A stretch of DNA of 63,439 bases, filler included, from Reclinomonas americana ATCC 50394 (Eukaryota): the NCBI GenBank assembly GCA_048213135.1. It is 7 parts of 4 records of this genome, joined end to end, with 100 filler letters (N's around TTAATTAATTAA, not from the genome) between each part and the next. Parts side by side here need not be neighbours in the genome. Positions count along the whole stretch, not along the records: positions 45,567 to 59,338 come from PS015114.1; 6 more parts are not named here. One strand, 5' to 3'. The notes under the pieces were generated by a model. That model was not told the origin of the DNA, ran no database searches, and worked only from the letters and a program-made list of their open reading frames with translations. Below are positions 12,501 through 50,859 of the stretch, in pieces (position 1 is the stretch's first letter; every line of letters starts with the position of its first letter). Position numbers and translations under genes: made by a program.

Positions 12501-13453
12501 AATGGAGTGCACAAAATTACGGAAAGGAAAATGACGCAACAGAGCTCCACGGGCCAAAGCCCCACTGGCCCACAGCGCGTACGCGCACCACGTAGCCAGT
12601 GCTCGGCTGCAGCAGGCTGGCCGAGGCTGTGGCACCAGTGCCCGACACCACGCACGTCTGCTGCGAGAACGGGCCGCTCGTGAACGGGATGATGGCTGCA
12701 TTGGCGTTGTTGCCGACAGTGGTCTCAGTGTAGAAGGTCACCGGGGTCCAGGCCGTCAGCGAGTTGCCAGTCGAGCTGCGGATCTGCACCTGGAAGAACG
12801 GACTCTGCAGCTGGTTGAAGTTGGCGACGTTGCCGGAGCCCGTGGCGCCAGTCTGGCCGAGCTTGATCGGCGGGTAGAACGACAGCACAAACGACGTGGC
12901 CGACGTGTAGCTGATGGCCAGGTTGGTCGGCTGGCGCGGGGTGCCACCGAGCGGCACCGTCACGACCTGCGACGAGGTGCGAACGCCCTCACCGTACGCG
13001 TTGACCGCGTAGGCCTGTGGGTGGGGGGAAGAGATGAAATGAGTGGGGAGGGGAGGGAGAGGGAGGGAGGAAGAGGGGAAGAGAAGACGCAACAGCGATG
13101 GTGTACTGCACGCCCTCCTGGATGTTCTGGTCAAAGTAGCGCAGAATCATGCCGTAGCAGCCGTTGCCGCCGGTCGAGGGGCCGCCGTTGGCTGGGATGG
13201 CGTTGACCGCGGAGCACTGTTGGTGGGGAAGGAGAAGAGAGTGAGGGGGAGGAGGGGAAGAGGATGGAAGCGCAAGAAGACGCAACAGTGTACTTGGTGG
13301 TGCCACCAGTGCTGGCCACGTCGACACCGAACTCGGTGGGCGGCGCGTTGCCCTGGTTGATGGGGGTCGTCCAGTTGACCCAGATGGCCGACTGCGAGCC
13401 AGTCGGGGCGGAGGTGTCGAGGTCTGCCAAAGGTGAAGGAGAATTGTGAGGAA

Positions 13454-13488
<35 letters not shown>

Positions 13489-13546
13489 CACACAGAGGAG
13501 GGATGCGAAGAGAGATGTCAAAACAAAGAGGTGGGGAGAACTATAC

Positions 13547-36102: not shown

Positions 36103-37577
36103 ATTTGCACAACCTCGCCAGTCGACCAACTCCGAAACACCGCCGTCGGCGTCTTGGCTGGAGATGGGCTGTGTACGGCGAGATCACTGTCGCCTGGTCT
36201 CTCTAGGCCACGATATCGAAGTGGGTGGAACTCCTCTTCAACGACGATAATTGCAATTTTGTCCGTGTTTCCCGTGTCGAATGCCATCGCCGCCCTCCTC
36301 TCCCACCCTTTTCTCTCCCCTCCACCCCGTCCTCCACCCCACCCGCGCCTGCCCACCGCCAGCACGTCGCGACAGTGTGCATCGTCGACCGACCGTCAAT
36401 TTGAGCCTCCTGTCTGTCCGAGTTCGGTTTTGTGTTTTTTGCATCGCCCACCCGCCGGGCGATCGCCGCGGCTGCATAAAACGCCAACATCGCAGAGGTT
36501 GGTCCAATCATTCACACCTACCTTGTGAGCCAAGACAACCACCTCAACAACAACAACAAGCACAACAACCACAACAATCATGACGACTCAACAACGCGTC
36601 ACTGCCGCGCTCCTCGCGCTGGCGGTGCTTCTCCTCCTCGCCATCTCCTCGGCACAAGCCGGCGCTCTGCCACTGGCTGCCGCTCACCGTCCTCCCCCAC
36701 CACCACCCCCACCACCAGCAGACGGTGACTCCTCCACTCATCCTCATCCGCCGCCGCCGCCACCACCACCGCCTGCTGGTGGCGACGACNNNNNNNNNNN
36801 NNNNNNNNNNNNNNNNNNNNNNNNNNNNNNNNNNNNNNNNNNNNNNNNNNNNNNNNNNNNNNNNNNNNNNNNNNNNNNNNNNNNNNNNNNNNNNNNNNNN
36901 NNNNNNNNNNNNNNNNNNNNNNNNNACCGCAGGAGGGCGGCCAGCAGCAGGGTGGCCAGGGTCGCCCACCGCAAGAGGGCGGCCAGCAGCAAGGTGGCCA
37001 GGGTCGCCCGCCGCAGGAGGGCGGCCAGCAGCAGGGTGGCCAGGGTCGCCCGCCGCAAGAGGGCGGCCAGCAGCAGGGTGGCCAGGGTCGCCCACCGCAA
37101 GACGGTGGCCACGACCAGCAGGGTGGCCAGGGTCGCCCGCCGCAGGAGGGCGGACACGAGCAACAGGGCCAGAACCGTCCTCCGCAGCAAGGCGGTGGCA
37201 ACTCTCGCGATGAGCAGCAGCAGCAGCAGCCGCCTCGCGGTCCGCCCGGCTGGTCGATTGCGCTGATGGTGACGGGCGTGGTGGCACTGGTGGCTGCTGT
37301 GGTCGTGGCCGCGCTCATGTTTGTGCGCGTGCGACGCCTCCAGCGCCAGCTCAACACGGTGTCGCTGAACGGAAACCAGCTGCTGGTGGCCGCGCCGGCT
37401 CAAGCGGCCCCGACTGTCACTGTCATGCGCCAGTCGCACGCACTGGCCTACTCGCCGATGCCTGAGGACGCCGAGCAGCGCGTCTAAAGTGCGACAGAAA
37501 AGAACAACAACGAGCATGAAGATGATAAATGCCCAAGTGTGAATAGTGTTTTGCTTTACTTAGTCCACATACATGTC
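36103..37577 (+). repeat. Segmental duplication, copy 1 (copy 2 is 39416-41047)
   Basis: Upstream region, CDS and 3' flank are near-identical between the copies apart from small indels. Confidence 0.9.
36580..37487 (+). CDS. Type I membrane protein with poly-Pro and PPQEGGQQQGGQGR repeats, copy 1
   Basis: Signal MTTQQRVTAALLALAVLLLLAISSAQA; 42-nt tandem repeat 36926-37150; TM WSIALMVTGVVALVAAVVVAALMFVRVRR. Confidence 0.8.
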
Positions 37578-39372: not shown

Positions 39373-39891
39373 TGTGTGTGTGTGTGTGTGATTGCGTGAG
39401 AGTGATTGCGTGAGAATTTGCACGCAATTCGCCGGTCGACCAACTCTGAAACACCGCCGTCGGCGTCTTGGCTTTTGATGTGCTTTGGTACGGCGCGCCT
39501 GATTCCTCTTGGCCACGATATCGAAGTGGAACTCCTCTTCAACGACGATAATTGCAATTTTGTCCGTGTTTCATGTTTCGCATGCAGCCGCCGCCCTCCT
39601 CCCCCACCCTTTTCTCTCCCTACCACCCCGTCCTCCGCCCCATCCGCGCCTGCCCACCGCCAGCACGTCGCGACAGTGTGCATCGTCGACCGACCGTCAA
39701 TTTGAGCCTCCTGTCTGTCCGAGTTCGGTTTTGTGTTTTTTGCATCGCAGATCACAAATGCTCCCACCCGCCGGGCAATCGCCGCGGCTGCATAAAACGC
39801 CAACATCGCAGAGGTTCAATCATTCACACCTACCTTGTGAGCCAAGACAGCCACCTCAGCAACAACAACAACAACAAGCACAACAACAATC

Positions 39892-40953
39892 ATGACGACT
39901 CAACAACGCGTCACTGCCGCGCTCCTCGCGCTGGCGGTGCTTCTCCTCCTCGCCATCTCATCGGCACAAGCTGGCGCTCTGCCACTGGCTGCCGCTCACC
40001 GTCCTCCCCCACCACCACCTCCTCCACCAGCAGACGGTGACTCCTCCACGCATCCTCACCCGCCGCCGCCGCCGCCACCACCGCCATCACCGCCTGCTGG
40101 TGGCGACGATNNNNNNNNNNNNNNNNNNNNACCCTCCTGCGGTGGGCGACCCTGGCCACCTTGCTGCTGGCCACCCTCCTGCGGTGGGCGACCCTGGCCA
40201 CCACCCTGCTGCGGCGGGCGGCCCTCCTCCGGCTCCGGCTCACCGGCAGCACGAGCGCGGATCAGCGAGCGAGCATGTGCCGACGGAGCCGCCATGCGTT
40301 GCAGCACCGCGTGGCCACCAGTCAGCTCGGCGCCAACGGCAGTCGGTGCCGGTGCCGGAGCATCGTCGTCGTCATCGCCACCAGCTGGCGGCGGCGGAGG
40401 CGGCGGTGGAGGCGGGTGAGTGGCATCATCATCACCATCGGCACCACCAGCTGGGGGCGGCGGTGGCGGAGGCGGATGAGGATGAGTGGAGTCNNNNNNN
40501 NNNNNNNNNNNNNNNNNNNNNNNNNNNNNNNNNNNNNNNNNNNNNNNNNNNNNNNNNNNNNNNNNNNNNGGCCAGCAGCAAGGTGGTCAGGGACGCCCAC
40601 CGCAGCAGGGTGGCCACGAGCAACAGGGTCAGAACCGTCCTCCGCAGCAGGGCGGTGGCAACTCTCGCGATGAGCAGCAGCACGGTCAGCAGCAGCCGCC
40701 TCGCGGTCCGCCCGGCTGGTCGATTGCACTGATGGTGACGGGCGTGGTGGCCCTGGTGGCTGCTGTGGTCGTGGCCGCGCTCATGTTTGTGCGCGTGCGT
40801 CGCCTCCAGCGCCAGCTCAACACGGTGTCGCTGAACGGTAACCAGCTGCTGGTGGCCGCACCGGCTCAAGCGGCCCCGACTGTCACTGTCATGCGCCAGT
40901 CGCACGCACTGGCCTACACGCCGATGGCCGACGAGGCCGAGCAGCGCGTCTAA
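39892..40953 (+). CDS. Type I membrane protein with poly-Pro and PPQEGGQQQGGQGR repeats, copy 2 (internal contig 40131-40493 assembled inverted)
   Basis: Same N- and C-termini as 36580-37487; the reverse complement of 40131-40493 reads DSTHPHPPPP..GEPEPEEGRPPQQGG, bridging the two halves. Confidence 0.8.
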
Positions 40954-41151
40954 AGTGCGAGAGAAAAGAACAACAACGAGCATGAAGATGATACTGTAAA
41001 TGCCCAAGTGTGAATAGTGTTTTGTTTACTTGGTCACATACATGTCTTTCATTGATCCGAATACAAGTACACAAAGTCCAAGTGAGTGAGTGAGCAAGAG
41101 GTAACGCGTTCCTCACACTCTCTCACTCACACTCTCTCTCTCTCTCTCAGG

Positions 41152-43469: not shown

Positions 43470-44805
43470 CGGAATCTTCATCTTGGGGTACGACAACGGC
43501 GGTCCAAATCGCTGCATATTGATCAACCATGGTGGTGGTGCACCCTCGGGCATGCCCAGTGCCTCTTTCAGCTCCGACGTGAGCATGCCTGGTATGCGGT
43601 CGTCCAACTTGACACCAAACTCCTTGCCCTCGTAGTACCTGCGCGAAGACGGTGAGGACGATTACTTATGGACAGCAGCGCACGTCCTTCCATGCCACGC
43701 AACAAATCGCCGTGTCCCGTCAACTTTGGCTTGGTCTGGAACTTGAAAAAGGCGTCGTGCAACACCTGGTAGTCAATGTCCATGCCGCCCGACTTGGGCT
43801 GCATGCGGTCGCGTGCCTTTTGCTTCAGCTTCTTCTCGTTCTCCTTCTCAAAGTACGCCTCGCGCATCTTGCGGATACCCGTCTCTTCGATAAACTCCGG
43901 CAGCTTGAACGGCGGCTTCTCGATACCGCGCTTGCCCTGCAGGTACTTGCGCTTCTGCGACCAGTGACGCGGCACCGGCACCGTGTTGCGGTAGGATTTG
44001 AGGAAGACGAGGAGGCGGGGGTCGGCGGCGGTCACGTCGTGGGCCTGTAGACAGAAGGGTGTGTGTGAGTGAGCGGGAAGAACAGAAGGAGTAATTTCTC
44101 CCTTCTTGCTCACCTCCACGACTTCTGGCCGCGGCACCAGTTGCTTCAGATCGGCCACCGACAGGCGCGTCAGCAGCTTCTTCTTGCGGTTGCTGAGCTT
44201 CTGCTTCTTCTCGCCATTCGCCGCCTCTTCCTCCTCGTCCGAGTCGTCGTCCATTCCACCAGCAAACAGGTCCTTCTTGGCGTCTTCCACCTTGACTTCC
44301 ACGCCGTCTTCCTCCTGAGAGAGAAGAAGGGGGGAGGTGAGCAGAGAGGGAGGGGAGAGAGAGGAGAGGACAGGAGTTATGAGGAAAGCATGCTCGTCAC
44401 GCTGTTTGACGGTTGCGGAGATAGTTTCTGTTCACGGGCTCGTGGGACAGAATGCAGACACTCTCTCAGTGGCGAAAACGAGAAAGCATGATCGACAAAC
44501 AATGGCTCTTAGTGAGGGATATACAGAGAGATTCTTACTCATCACAAACTCATGAGACGTACAAGATGGAGCTTTCTCAGTCGCGCGTGACGAGAAAGCA
44601 GGCTCGACAAACACTGACTCTGCGTGAGAGATGTGCAGACAGTTTCAGGCAAGATGGCTCTCACCCTCTGTGTGCATGTGTGCAAGCAAGGCGGGAGAAA
44701 CTGACTGGCTGTCGCTCGACAAACAGAATGGCGCAGCAGGCCGAATGGCCCTCCGCTTTCTGTACGCATAATAGACTGGATATGCTGCGCTTGCTTTTGG
44801 CTCTC

Positions 44806-45827: not shown

Positions 45828-46154
45828 AGCGAGTGAGAAAGAGAGCGACAGAGAACATGCAATGAGATCGAGAGGCAAGCACAATGAGTCAGGCCACACA
45901 AGAACACTCATCTCTCTCTCTTCCTCTCTGTTACTCTCACACACAGAGAGCGCGAGAGTGGGAGGAAAAGAGGGGCGAAAGGGGGAGAGAGAGAAGGGAC
46001 AGTTCACCATGGCCACATCTCGAGGCGCGCCCTTTGTTGTCGACGGTTGTTGTTGTTGTTGCTGTTTGAGTTCCTTCTTCTTCGCCTTTTGCTTCTTCTT
46101 CTTCTGCTTGCGGCGCTCGGCCTCGCGCTGCGCGGCCTTGTCGTTGCCGGGCAT
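43470..46154 (-). CDS. SF3B2: Splicing factor 3B subunit 2 (SAP145/Cus1), 3' truncated
   Basis: HDVTAADPRLLVFLKSYRNTVPVPRHWSQKRKYLQGKRGIEKPPFKLP, DIDYQVLHDAFFKFQTKP, HGDL/YYEGKEF and the PSP domain PPPWLINMQRFGPP; first exon 46154-46008 lies across a linker. Confidence 0.95.
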
Positions 46155-47350: not shown

Positions 47351-48404
47351 TCACCCTTCATTCTTCTCACCCACCACCAACCCAAACCCAAACTGCTCAG
47401 CGGTCTTCCACGTGCGCCTCACAAACACCGGCACGTCGCCCACCGTGACGCCCCTCGCCCGCAAACTATTCAAGTAGCGATACGTCAACGCGTCGCCCGG
47501 ATACCCCGAACCGAGCGGCTGACCACACTCATCGGCCAGCTCGAGCACTCGCCGGTCGCGTTCCGACTTGGCCACCAGCGACGCCATACCGACCACCGTG
47601 TACGTGTCGTCGGCGCGATGCTCGGCCACGATCCGTGCCACACGCGCATCATCGGCGTACTGTTCGCGAAACGGCTGCGCAAAGCGATCCGCCCGCACAT
47701 CCACCGCGTCCAGGTACACGCCCACGCCCACTGCACGCGCACCCAGCTGCTGCAGCACGCCCTCCACCACCGTCAAGAACGCACGCTGCTCAATCGCGTT
47801 GAGGTTCTCGCCGCGCATGCGTCGCGCATCAATCTCCTCCGCCGGGATCTCCAACACAAAACTGGCGGCCGCGCGTCGCACAATCAACGAGCTGAGCTCC
47901 TACAACACGCACACACGCACACACAGAGGTGAGCCGAGTGCAATGATTGACGCTCGTGCGATCGCGAGAGATGCAACATTGCGTTTCCGACTGCTGCTCA
48001 CACGCTTCGAATCGCGCGCGCCCGTGTCGCGCCACTCACGCAACATTCGCCGTCTCTCCGCCACACCACACACAATCAGCGGACCTGCACCATGCATCAG
48101 CAAAGAGACAGGGGGAGAGCGAGAGAGATAGAGAGACAGACGTGCGCTCACCAAGCACTGCACCACGCCCGCTCTCATCGACGCCTATTACTATGTCCTC
48201 CACTACACCTCCATCCACGCGACCTCCGCGTTGCGTGTGTGTGCGACCGGAGAGAGGTCGTCCGCGGCGTTTCAGTCCGTCGACCACCTCGTTCTCCTCA
48301 GCAGAGGAGGAGGCATTGCTCTCTCCTGATGGTGGCGGAGATGCACAGGAGTATAATCTGTGCAGCGGGCGCACCGGGGGGAGGTGTCGCAGCAGCCTCA
48401 GCAT
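47351..48404 (-). CDS. Ribonuclease HII (archaeal-like) with N-terminal presequence
   Basis: IGVDESGRGAVLG/PLIV, DSK, NLNAIE, VYLDAVDV, VAEHRADDTYTVVGMASLVAKSERD, GSGYPGD and PVFVRRTWKT; two GT-AG introns. Confidence 0.88.
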
Positions 48405-48662: not shown

Positions 48663-50859
48663 TCAGTACTCGCCGTGGGTCGGTGGGAACATGATGTCCT
48701 GTGGCGTGTCAGAGTGAGCTAAGCGACGATCGAGAGTAAGGAGCACCAGTGAGCAGCTGTGCACGCAACTGTTCGCATCACGTACTTGACACCGTCGTCG
48801 CTCACAATGGGCGCGCCCTCGTGCAGCAGTGGATGCACAAAGAACAGCGCGGAGCCTGGTGCAGTTGTCAGTCACTTGTGATCACTCTCTCTCTCTCTCT
48901 CACAGCTGTGCTCTTGCATGATCACTCACCCTTCTTCGGGTACACGGCGAGTGACGCTCGGCCCTCGCGCACATCCTCACGTGTCGCACCGTCCAGGTAG
49001 AACTTGGTGGCGCCGCCGACCTCTGGTGGGCAGTCGCTGTGTGAGGGGAGACAAGTCAGTCGCATGAAGAGAGACAAGGAGAGGGAGGGAGGGAGGGAGG
49101 GAGGGAGGGAGGGAGGGAGGGAGGCAGTGTCTGAGCAGTATCAATCGTGGAGGCACGACTAGAACGGTTGCAAAGAACTTCTTACTCTGCNNNNNNNNNN
49201 NNNNNNNNNNNNNNNNNNNNNNNNNNNNNNNNNNNNNNNNNNNNNNNNNNNNNNNNNNNNNNNNNNNNNNNNNNNNNNNNNNNNNNNNNNNNNNNNNNNN
49301 NNNNNNNNNNNNNNNNNNNNNNNNNNNNNNNNNNNNNNNNNNNNNNNNNNNNNNNNNNNNNNNNNNNNNNNNNNNNNNNNNNNNNNNNNNNNNNNNNNNN
49401 NNNNNNNNNNNNNNNNNNNNNNNNNNNNNNNNNNNNNNNNNNNNNNNNNNNNNNNNNNNNNNNNNNNNNNNNNNNNNNNNNNNNNNNNNNNNNNNNNNNN
49501 NNNNNNNNNNNNNNGGGAGGGAGGCAGTGTCTGAGCAGTATCAATCGTGGAGGCACGACTAGAACGGTTGCAAAGAACTTCTTCTCTTGCTCCCCTTCCC
49601 TCTCTACGTCTCTCTGGTCTCCACAGGAGTTCGTAACGGAGCCAGTGCATGCATAAACGTCGCTTCCTCCCTATCGCCTTCTCATGCCCCCTTCCCTCTC
49701 TGTGCATCTCACACACTCGAGTCTCCACGAATGCTTGAGCAGCGTCGCTCTCTTCCTTCTCCGTTCCCTCCCCTTCCCTCTCTGTGCATCTTACACACTC
49801 GAGTCTCCATACACGCTTGAGAAACGCCCTTTTCCTGTTTCCTCCTCCCTCCCTCTTCTCCCATCTCCTCCTCCCTCTTCTTCTTCTTCCTTCGTTTCGC
49901 CCCCTTCCCTCTTTGTGCCTACTACACTCGAGTCTCCAAGTTCCTTTTTCCTTCTCACTTCTCTGCCCTTTTCCTTCTCACTCCTCTTCCCTTCGTCTCC
50001 CCTGCTCCCTCTCCTCCCCCCGCGCGCACTCAACTTGAGATACAGCAGCACGGTGATCTTGCTGACCTCGTGCACACGATCGCCCCAATCCTTGATGCGC
50101 GGCGATCGGTGGAAGCAGCCGTCGAAGTGTGGTCGGAAGGCTGCAGAGGAAAAAAGGAGAGTCAGCGAACAGGCAGTGCGTTGCTTGTGCAGAGTCACTC
50201 AACTCTGTCCCTTCGTGTACCTAGAGCGTCGCAACAGGAAGAGCAAAGTGAGTCGCAGAGAATGGTGAAGAGACAACATGCACGCGCGCGCAACTTGTAG
50301 AACCGGAATCGCTCGTTGACACCGCAGGCAGTGCTGGCGAACTCCGCCGGGAGGTACTTCTGCAGGCGCGGCCAGATGACCGCAGCCAGCTCCTGCGAGA
50401 CCGACAGTTGTCAGGAACTACACTCGGGCCCGACAACAACACGGCGGACATGATCATCATGCAACGCAACATCGCTGTCAATCACCACGCGCTCGTTGTC
50501 GCGCACATCCTTCATCATCACCGGACCTCGTGCTGCGCGATCGGCACACACAGTGAGCGACAGGAGTCGTGTATTTCTGGAACAGGCGAGCCGAATGTGG
50601 ACTCTTCTCTTCAAACTCACAAGTGGTGATCGGGGCATCGGCGTACCCCGCGTCCTCCGTACGCTGGCGCCACTCGTCGCACTCATCATCGCTCAGCACT
50701 CCGTCCACCGTCATGATGCATCGACTCTCCTGCAAACGACAACATGAGCGGTCGTCGAGTTGTCTTCCCTCCACACCCTCGCACGCACGCAACATCGTAC
50801 ATCGTCACACCGTCGCGCACCCACGCCGGTTGCAGCTCTCCACCATGTGCAGCACCCAT
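48663..50859 (-). CDS. 2-oxoglutarate/Fe(II) dioxygenase (prolyl-4-hydroxylase-like)
   Basis: VLSDDEC, RDNERV, GVNERFRFYK/YTKGQ/TFRPHFDG, ITVLLYL, GGATKF, LLHEG and KYVMRT/DIMF; the HxD...H...K triad is intact. Confidence 0.88.

Follow-up and report, generated by a model that had tools for sequence, protein, structure and literature searches.

An archaeal-type RNase HII gene with a presequence-like leader and its probable place in an overlooked protist family

To our knowledge, human and other animal mitochondria and those of yeast lack RNase H2-type ribonucleotide excision. In RNASEH2A, the C-terminal extension that follows the RFSW motif is the B/C-binding part of the protein, and RNase HIII works without the junction-sensing GRG motif and the invariant tyrosine. 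According to a 2026 review (PMC13492167), type 2 RNases H detect a single ribonucleotide by means of a module formed by GRG and a tyrosine, and archaeal RNase HII is a monomer that binds PCNA via a PIP box. A mitochondrial type II RNase H of Leishmania (Misra et al. 2005) is cited as a rare exception in passages of PMC6753483, PMC9181182, and PMC10489836; passages of the first of these add that the match between the Leishmania genes and H2A/B/C of T. brucei is not simple to discern, and that a mitochondrial role was not found for T. brucei RNase H2A. The Paulinella chromatophore is associated with a bacterial-pathway RNase HII (K03470; PMC9450145), and a 2025 replisome study divides eukaryotic RnhB into one archaeal and one bacterial clade, with two copies in Dictyostelium, and no mitochondrial archaeal-type RnhB lineage is mentioned in passages of that study (PMC12680538). 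Moreover, an excerpt of a maize paper reports a slot-blot detection of RNase H2A in organelles with an anti-human antibody, and PMC11589745 merely names RNase HII among replication genes. In our literature search, whose coverage lay largely outside subscription journals, no description of a group of archaeal-type protist RNases HII was found; the group related to DDB_G0277705 that is considered below is delimited here and corresponds to no published family.

Dictyostelium possesses, beside DDB_G0292584 (Q54D13), which we take to be its canonical RNASEH2A, a second RNase H2-type gene, DDB_G0277705 (Q54ZA4), whose product is mitochondrial by proteomics in two datasets. In the first of them, DDB_G0277705 shows an enrichment ratio of 0.82 and a mitochondrial-cluster probability of 1, and DDB_G0292584 shows a ratio of 0.039 and is non-mitochondrial (PMC9118663); the words "ribonuclease" and "RNase" occur nowhere in the main text of that paper, where DDB_G0277705 is only listed in tables. 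In the second, an independent spatial proteomics preprint, the SVM value for mitochondria is 0.915 (PMC13648671). The proteomic tables label this protein as belonging to the "RNase H2 subunit A" family. In a table of PMC13632651, orthogroup OG0001887 contains two Dictyostelium members (Q54ZA4 and RNH2A_DICDI), one human and one yeast member, two RNase H2-type genes of Entamoeba, and three members of Acanthamoeba, none of which belongs to the mitochondrial inventory of that amoeba.

The window analysed here, i.e., the whole stretch of DNA (63,439 nucleotides), contains on an intron-rich eukaryotic scaffold a minus-strand RNase HII gene at 48404-47351, with three exons and about 302 codons (Table 1). 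In the translated window, the RNase HII motifs are spread over three pieces in two reading frames and the region is not one ORF; two GT-AG introns are needed to join the frames, and both gene models, of 302 or 294 amino acids, are open. When scored against homologues, the 302-residue model is about 13 bits ahead of the other. Its intron 2 donor, GTTGCAT, looks weak, yet it falls within a GTTGCRT motif that is enriched in the window (52 matches on both strands versus 19 expected, 2.7-fold, a count reached in 0/100 shuffles) and that also lies where homology would end an exon, both in SF3B2 and in the next gene upstream of the RNase HII gene. The perfect GTTGCGT found within exon 2, at 48044, does not qualify as a donor, since its use shifts the frame and loses the DSK motif. 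The frame is free of stops and frameshifts, every invariant residue is retained, and GC3 in exon 3 is 0.78. Between the in-frame stop lying upstream and the catalytic Asp-Glu pair, the frame contains no ATG other than that at 48404, where the N-terminus quoted in the earlier note (MLRLLRHLPPVRPLHRLYS) does occur. From these sequence features, we infer that the gene is spliced through two introns as modelled.

Table 1. Features of the RNase HII gene and related motifs, in window coordinates.
Feature	Position	Strand	Basis
Exon 1: leader, low-complexity linker, first catalytic strand	48152..48404	minus	in-frame translation
Predicted mitochondrial presequence, residues 1-19/20, with R-x-Y-S at 17-20	48345..48404	minus	import and cleavage presumed
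Catalytic D76 and E77, with GRG junction-sensing motif (79-81)	48162..48179	minus	62-row alignment
Intron 1, 67 nt, GTGAGC...TGCAG	48085..48151	minus	required to link two frames; presumed
Exon 2, carrying the DSK motif	47978..48084 (other end 48002)	minus	Pfam RNase_HII E 8e-4, homology
Intron 2, 78 nt, GTTGCAT...TTGTAG	47900..47977	minus	donor choice presumed from homology
Intron 2, alternative donor GTGAGC, 102 nt intron	48001	minus	gives 294-aa model
Exon 3: remainder of RNase HII fold, stop TGA	47351..47899	minus	profile and fold matches
Signature ID..RR..GENLN, common to the eukaryote-like group	47798..47833	minus	10/21 eukaryote-like rows vs 1/157 others
Catalytic D184	47708..47710	minus	D in 62/62 rows
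Catalytic D217	47609..47611	minus	D in 60/62 rows
Y253 in GSGYP, likely junction-sensing tyrosine	47501..47503	minus	Y in 62/62 rows, including bacterial
GTTGCRT apparent intron starts	43697-43703, 48763-48769, 47971-47977	minus	SF3B2, upstream gene, RNase HII gene

The gene upstream stops at 48663, leaving 258 bases between both genes. The segment 48663-49036 (minus strand), together with the sequence upstream of it, is the 3' end of an intron-split gene which, from its motifs, is presumably a prolyl-4-hydroxylase-like 2-oxoglutarate/Fe(II) oxygenase; Pfam returned no match for its two short exons. The flanks of an N gap (49116-49190 and 49515-49590) are near-identical copies and, thus, the gap probably conceals an overlap rather than missing DNA. 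The start of a short Lys/Gln-rich ORF at 46011-46154 (minus strand), without a match in Pfam, is assumed to be small-EDRK-rich-factor-like. Elsewhere in the window, a very long Thr/Ala/Gly-rich gene with a hydrophobic tail at about 6500-13500 (minus strand) probably encodes a fibronectin-III-repeat surface protein, and two tandem paralogues at about 36500-37500 and 39850-41000 (plus strand) each combine a signal peptide and one transmembrane segment with Pro-rich and GQGRPPQ-type repeats.

The reading of the window protein as an archaeal-type RNase HII rather than RNASEH2A is supported, and its active site is complete. The peptides on which the earlier note had based this assignment (NLNAIE, YLDAVDVRADRF, IVAEHRADDTY, ADECGQPLGSGYP, and VRRTWKT) are all encoded at the place it had given, in exon 3 on the minus strand, and the early end after VRRTWKT is likewise real, with the protein stopping 18 residues past RRTW. 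The greater proximity to archaeal RNase HII holds in the PDB, where exon 3 matches nine archaeal sequences (E 1e-18 to 3e-13) and four human or mouse RNASEH2A sequences (E 6e-5 to 7e-4), i.e., 1e-18 versus 6e-5 for the best of each. The RNASEH2A features that the earlier note had set against these hold in three RNASEH2A-type rows, with RFSW in 3/3, DTVG in 1/3, and C-terminal extensions. Exon 3 matches NCBIfam TIGR00729 with an E of 4e-27, under the whole-protein cut-off because exon 3 is a fragment; Pfam PF01351 (RNase_HII) gives 60 bits (cut-off 25.8), and the top three clusters for the Atlas features of the window protein are archaeal (0.96-0.97). With phmmer, the protein scores 93-148 bits against archaeal-type rows versus 22-54 against three RNASEH2A rows, and 24 against a bacterial row. 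The structure predicted for exon 3 (pLDDT 94.5) superposes on 1eke with a Foldseek TM of 0.71, and in this model-based search only archaeal RNases HII (12 chains) reach E<=0.001, with RNASEH2A next (1.5e-3 to 1.4e-2).

In an alignment of 62 rows, D76 is conserved in 60, E77 in 58, G79 in 60, R80 in 46, and G81 in 60, and the DSK motif of the window protein occupies near-invariant columns. The arginine of GRG is replaced by Lys or Ala in some of the relatives aligned and, therefore, substrate preference may vary within the group. Y253 probably corresponds to Tyr163 of T. maritima. By analogy with described RNases HII, the protein is predicted to cleave DNA on the 5' side of a single embedded ribonucleotide. 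In comparison with the three RNASEH2A rows, the window protein has no RNASEH2A-type C-terminal extension, which suggests that it may be active as a single chain; a PIP-like C-terminal tail, searched for with a crude pattern, is also absent. Thus, the window protein would resemble the archaeal enzyme in its working, yet it is no standard member, as the PIP box is missing.

The N-terminus is basic and acid-free, as had been noticed, with four Arg and no Asp or Glu within the first 20 residues, and the hydrophobic moment of the leader is 0.68. Its R-x-Y-S is taken to be an R-3 processing site. Among the 654 open 45-codon stretches of the window that start with ATG, 52 are equally basic and acid-free, 10 are also as amphipathic, and the leader of the window protein alone combines all features, in a generous test run with a script of our own rather than a trained predictor and with thresholds taken from the leader itself. 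Moreover, the leader cannot be skipped without loss of catalytic residues, because ATG 48404 is the only in-frame start upstream of them. Hence, the protein likely goes to the mitochondrion, as far as its sequence can tell.

With exon 3 as a direct query, the homologue search returned eight archaeal-like matches and no eukaryote; eukaryotic relatives surfaced only in a profile-free full scan, where the best 150 of 1076 matches include proteins with long, often basic N-termini. The eukaryotic relatives named among the matches listed or looked up are Balamuthia mandrillaris, Paulinella chromatophora, and seven dictyostelids (D. discoideum DDB_G0277705, D. purpureum, D. citrinum, Tieghemostelium, Heterostelium, Acytostelium, and Polysphondylium). 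The eukaryote-like set comprises 21 rows, eight with species names, 12 others assigned through sequence features and tree position, and a further one whose gene lies head-to-head with that of mitochondrial ATP synthase d. N-terminal extensions of at least 20 residues are present in 17/22 eukaryote-like rows (window included) versus 18/130 rows of the other pool, which consists mostly of unlabelled rows assumed to be archaeal. A basic acid-free start is found in 10/22 eukaryote-like rows (window included), with exceptions, as several N-termini are acidic or very short (P0037, P0182, and P0183 start acidic). A PIP-like tail occurs, by the crude pattern, in 0/21 eukaryote-like rows versus 62/128 rows of the other pool. 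Three motifs are common with the eukaryote-like rows, namely the signature of Table 1 and two more (2/21 versus 0/157 and 9/21 versus 2/157 others), all picked post hoc after viewing the alignment. Among the matches listed, the best single match of the window protein is archaeal-like and the highest identity to any relative is about 45%; identity to DDB_G0277705 is 28%. Heimdallarchaeota and Kariarchaeaceae proteins score high on the profile of the eukaryote-like group.

Several relatives present peculiarities of their own. Some of them (P0162, P0014, P0048; L081 1041-1724) carry a Cys-x-Cys...Cys-x-His motif between leader and nuclease, presumably a SWIM-like zinc finger, although Pfam did not call a zinc finger in these proteins; in them, GAG replaces GRG, and one is the relative encoded head-to-head with mitochondrial ATP synthase subunit d. 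In the Paulinella chromatophora protein (P0240), which begins with a basic leader, the RNase HII domain is interrupted by a Myb-like domain (PF00249, E 8e-7). Viral contigs were considered as a source of the window protein and rejected: in the 80 loci kept, of 395 confirmed, they hold distant relatives only, with top identities of 27-34% to the Balamuthia protein and none close. The best viral-contig matches (L001-L003) are RNase HII genes of archaeal appearance that lack leaders and share 31-34% identity with the Balamuthia protein.

A phylogeny, named in the earlier note as a check, disfavours nesting inside RNASEH2A, while the placement among archaeal versus protist rows varies between trees. 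The trees sampled archaeal, eukaryote-like, and bacterial rows and three RNASEH2A rows, viral rows being left out. In a quick IQ-TREE of 141 rows (24 short rows excluded), the window protein falls in a 21-row group (SH-type support 83) with eukaryote-like rows and a few archaea. FastTree with 371 of 402 rows (those dropped include P0185 and P0240) places it in a 28-row group (SH-type support 85) of 24 eukaryote-like and three uncertain rows, and the next well-supported node (95) takes in Heimdall/Kari-like rows as well as the three RNASEH2A rows. In a careful IQ-TREE of 62 chosen rows, it pairs with two Gly/Ala/Arg/Pro-rich archaeal rows (95/87) inside an archaeal group (94/94), and the other 21 eukaryote-like rows form a 32-row group with Asgard-like rows (92/60). 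Once the five most composition-biased rows are removed, the quick tree again puts the window protein beside the eukaryote-like group (SH-type support 81), and in the careful tree the pairing with archaeal rows vanishes and no placement is supported. The nearest row in three trees, P0013, has no match among GTDB genomes.

The eukaryote-like rows form one clade in 0/200 bootstrap trees, and an AU test of a single clade of all 22 (window and 21 eukaryote-like rows) gives p 0.41. The three RNASEH2A rows constitute a 100/100 clade with the window protein outside; attaching it to the RNASEH2A stem gives p 0.50, nesting it with two fungal RNASEH2A rows p 0.034 at a cost of 47 log-likelihood units, and nesting it with the third p 0.050 at a cost of 43. 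In a leave-one-out profile test, the window protein has a score difference of +6.0, above 151/155 rows of the other pool, while every one of the 21 eukaryote-like rows scores higher (+29 to +163), and it obtains 265 on eukaryote-like profiles versus 240 on profiles of the archaeal group from the careful tree. On as few as 211 columns, the protein does not appear to be a nested RNASEH2A and leans to the protist group; common membership with DDB_G0277705, Balamuthia, and Paulinella seems likely. If the host is a jakobid, the group would reach across Discoba, Amoebozoa, and Rhizaria, in favour of an old origin.

With moderate confidence, we favour the reading that the locus is a nuclear gene for an archaeal-type RNase HII that is likely mitochondrial, is predicted to nick at ribonucleotides or primers as a single chain, and probably belongs to the protist family of DDB_G0277705. 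The separate organelle-targeted enzyme proposed in the earlier note is partly upheld, with regard to archaeal type, an active site that is intact, a leader inseparable from the catalytic residues, and a mitochondrial homologue in Dictyostelium; what the note did not see is that the enzyme is probably no one-off and part of a wider protist group. The gene presents an open three-exon frame with a complete active site and a predicted RNase HII fold. Its basic amphipathic leader would bring the protein into the matrix and may be cut near residues 18-20. D76, E77, D184, and D217 would hold two metal ions for a cut 5' of the ribonucleotide, which, on the model of archaeal and bacterial RNases HII, would be recognised via the GRG motif and Y253. 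Without an RNASEH2A tail and a PIP box, the enzyme may need neither B/C subunits nor PCNA, and independence from PCNA would suit an organelle that lacks it. A family-A polymerase with 5' nuclease and a ligase could then complete the repair, and the proposed targets are embedded ribonucleotides as well as primer remnants or junctions in mitochondrial DNA. For jakobid mitochondria (Andalucia), passages of PMC7050145 list a Pol A-family ancestor, Twinkle, RNase H1, and an ATP-dependent ligase. That RNase H1 is the only RNase H in the predicted mitochondrial proteome of Andalucia speaks against the favoured reading, as does the absence of the Acanthamoeba orthogroup members from the mitochondrial inventory.

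A mitochondrial enzyme could also have been gained separately from an archaeon by lateral transfer, its likeness to the Dictyostelium group being convergent. The careful tree, where the window protein has two archaeal sisters inside an archaeal group, speaks for such a gain, as do archaeal-like best matches, a closest identity of about 45% among the matches listed, and the weakest score of the eukaryote-like set. However, both sister rows belong to the five with the strongest compositional bias and the pairing is gone once these are removed, the eukaryote-like profiles score the protein higher than those of that archaeal group do, and the three common motifs, although chosen post hoc, are rare elsewhere; consequently, we regard a separate transfer as unlikely. 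Still less probable, in our estimation, is a monomeric nuclear or cytosolic RNase HII that replaces or backs up the RNase H2 trimer, whose leader would be no more than an Arg-rich extension in a GC-rich genome. Starts equally basic and acid-free are indeed not rare in the window (52/654), Acanthamoeba has no orthogroup member in its mitochondrial inventory, and Entamoeba, which is not known to have mtDNA, has two members. Against it, only 10/654 starts are also amphipathic and hydrophobic and the cleavage-type motif is found in the window protein alone among them, the PCNA-binding tail that would be useful in the nucleus is missing, and in Dictyostelium a mitochondrial homologue exists beside RNASEH2A.

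Two further readings seem very improbable to us. An RNASEH2A that has diverged strongly and no longer has its tail would be compatible with the stem attachment and with the borderline result of one nesting test (p 0.050), in a comparison with three RNASEH2A rows, but the 100/100 clade of these rows leaves the window protein out, both nestings are costly in likelihood, and the phmmer scores to RNASEH2A rows fall well below those to archaeal-type rows. As for an archaeal contaminant or a dead gene, equally remote in our view, the scaffold is rich in N gaps; nevertheless, the gene has two spliceosomal introns, one with the unusual donor class of the window, its eukaryotic neighbours, including SF3B2, are intron-split, GC3 in exon 3 is 0.78, and neither a stop nor a frameshift interrupts a frame that keeps all invariant residues.

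The enzyme type is known, and what is new is the presence of similar archaeal-type enzymes across protists, one relative being mitochondrial by proteomics. The finding probably goes beyond an isolated transfer and concerns an overlooked protist family. If such enzymes act in protist mitochondria, these would possess a repair step that is absent from human and yeast mitochondria, and an archaeal-derived part would belong to organelle DNA machinery that is commonly portrayed as bacterial and phage-like. Dictyostelium offers a tractable model for a direct test of a mitochondrial archaeal-type RNase HII, and the window-type enzyme is a candidate one-gene tool to strip ribonucleotides from yeast or human mtDNA. 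As a tentative and rather doubtful extension, the last eukaryotic common ancestor may have had two archaeal-derived RNase H2 enzymes, a nuclear trimer and a single-chain mitochondrial one, the second of which was lost in animals and fungi. In that case, ribonucleotide excision repair in mitochondria would go back to that ancestor, the second enzyme having persisted in jakobids, amoebozoans, rhizarians, and other protists, and the many ribonucleotides in human and yeast mtDNA would reflect a derived loss.

Among the known systems, the archaeal monomeric RNase HII (PDB 1eke, 1io2, 1i39, and 3p83; TIGR00729) provides the best sequence and fold matches of the window protein, with the same fold, DEDD, GRG, DSK, GSGYP, and RxxW end; unlike it, the window protein has spliceosomal introns and an N-terminal extension of 73 residues whose start is presequence-like, and it lacks a PIP-box tail. 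RNASEH2A of the eukaryotic RNase H2 heterotrimer has the same type 2 RNase H active site and an archaeal ancestry, whereas its three rows differ from the window protein in acidic N-termini, RFSW, a C-terminal extension, and a clade of their own (100/100). The Leishmania enzyme, compared through passages of the papers that cite it, is an earlier case of a protist mitochondrion with a type 2 RNase H. Bacterial-type organellar RNases HII (Paulinella K03470, PMC9450145; the bacterial-origin RnhB clade in passages of PMC12680538) are likewise nucleus-encoded monomers thought to be organellar, but they are described as of bacterial pathway or origin, whereas the window protein scores 24 bits against a bacterial row and up to 148 against archaeal-type ones. 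The dictyostelid proteins differ from the window protein in long C-terminal tails and in GKG instead of GRG, apart from the low identity of DDB_G0277705. Nevertheless, DDB_G0277705 (Q54ZA4, XP_642511.1), the Balamuthia protein KAL6075705.1, and the Paulinella protein P007692 (EukProt EP00457) combine, as the window protein does, an archaeal-type core with an N-terminal leader, the absence of a PIP tail, and common motifs.
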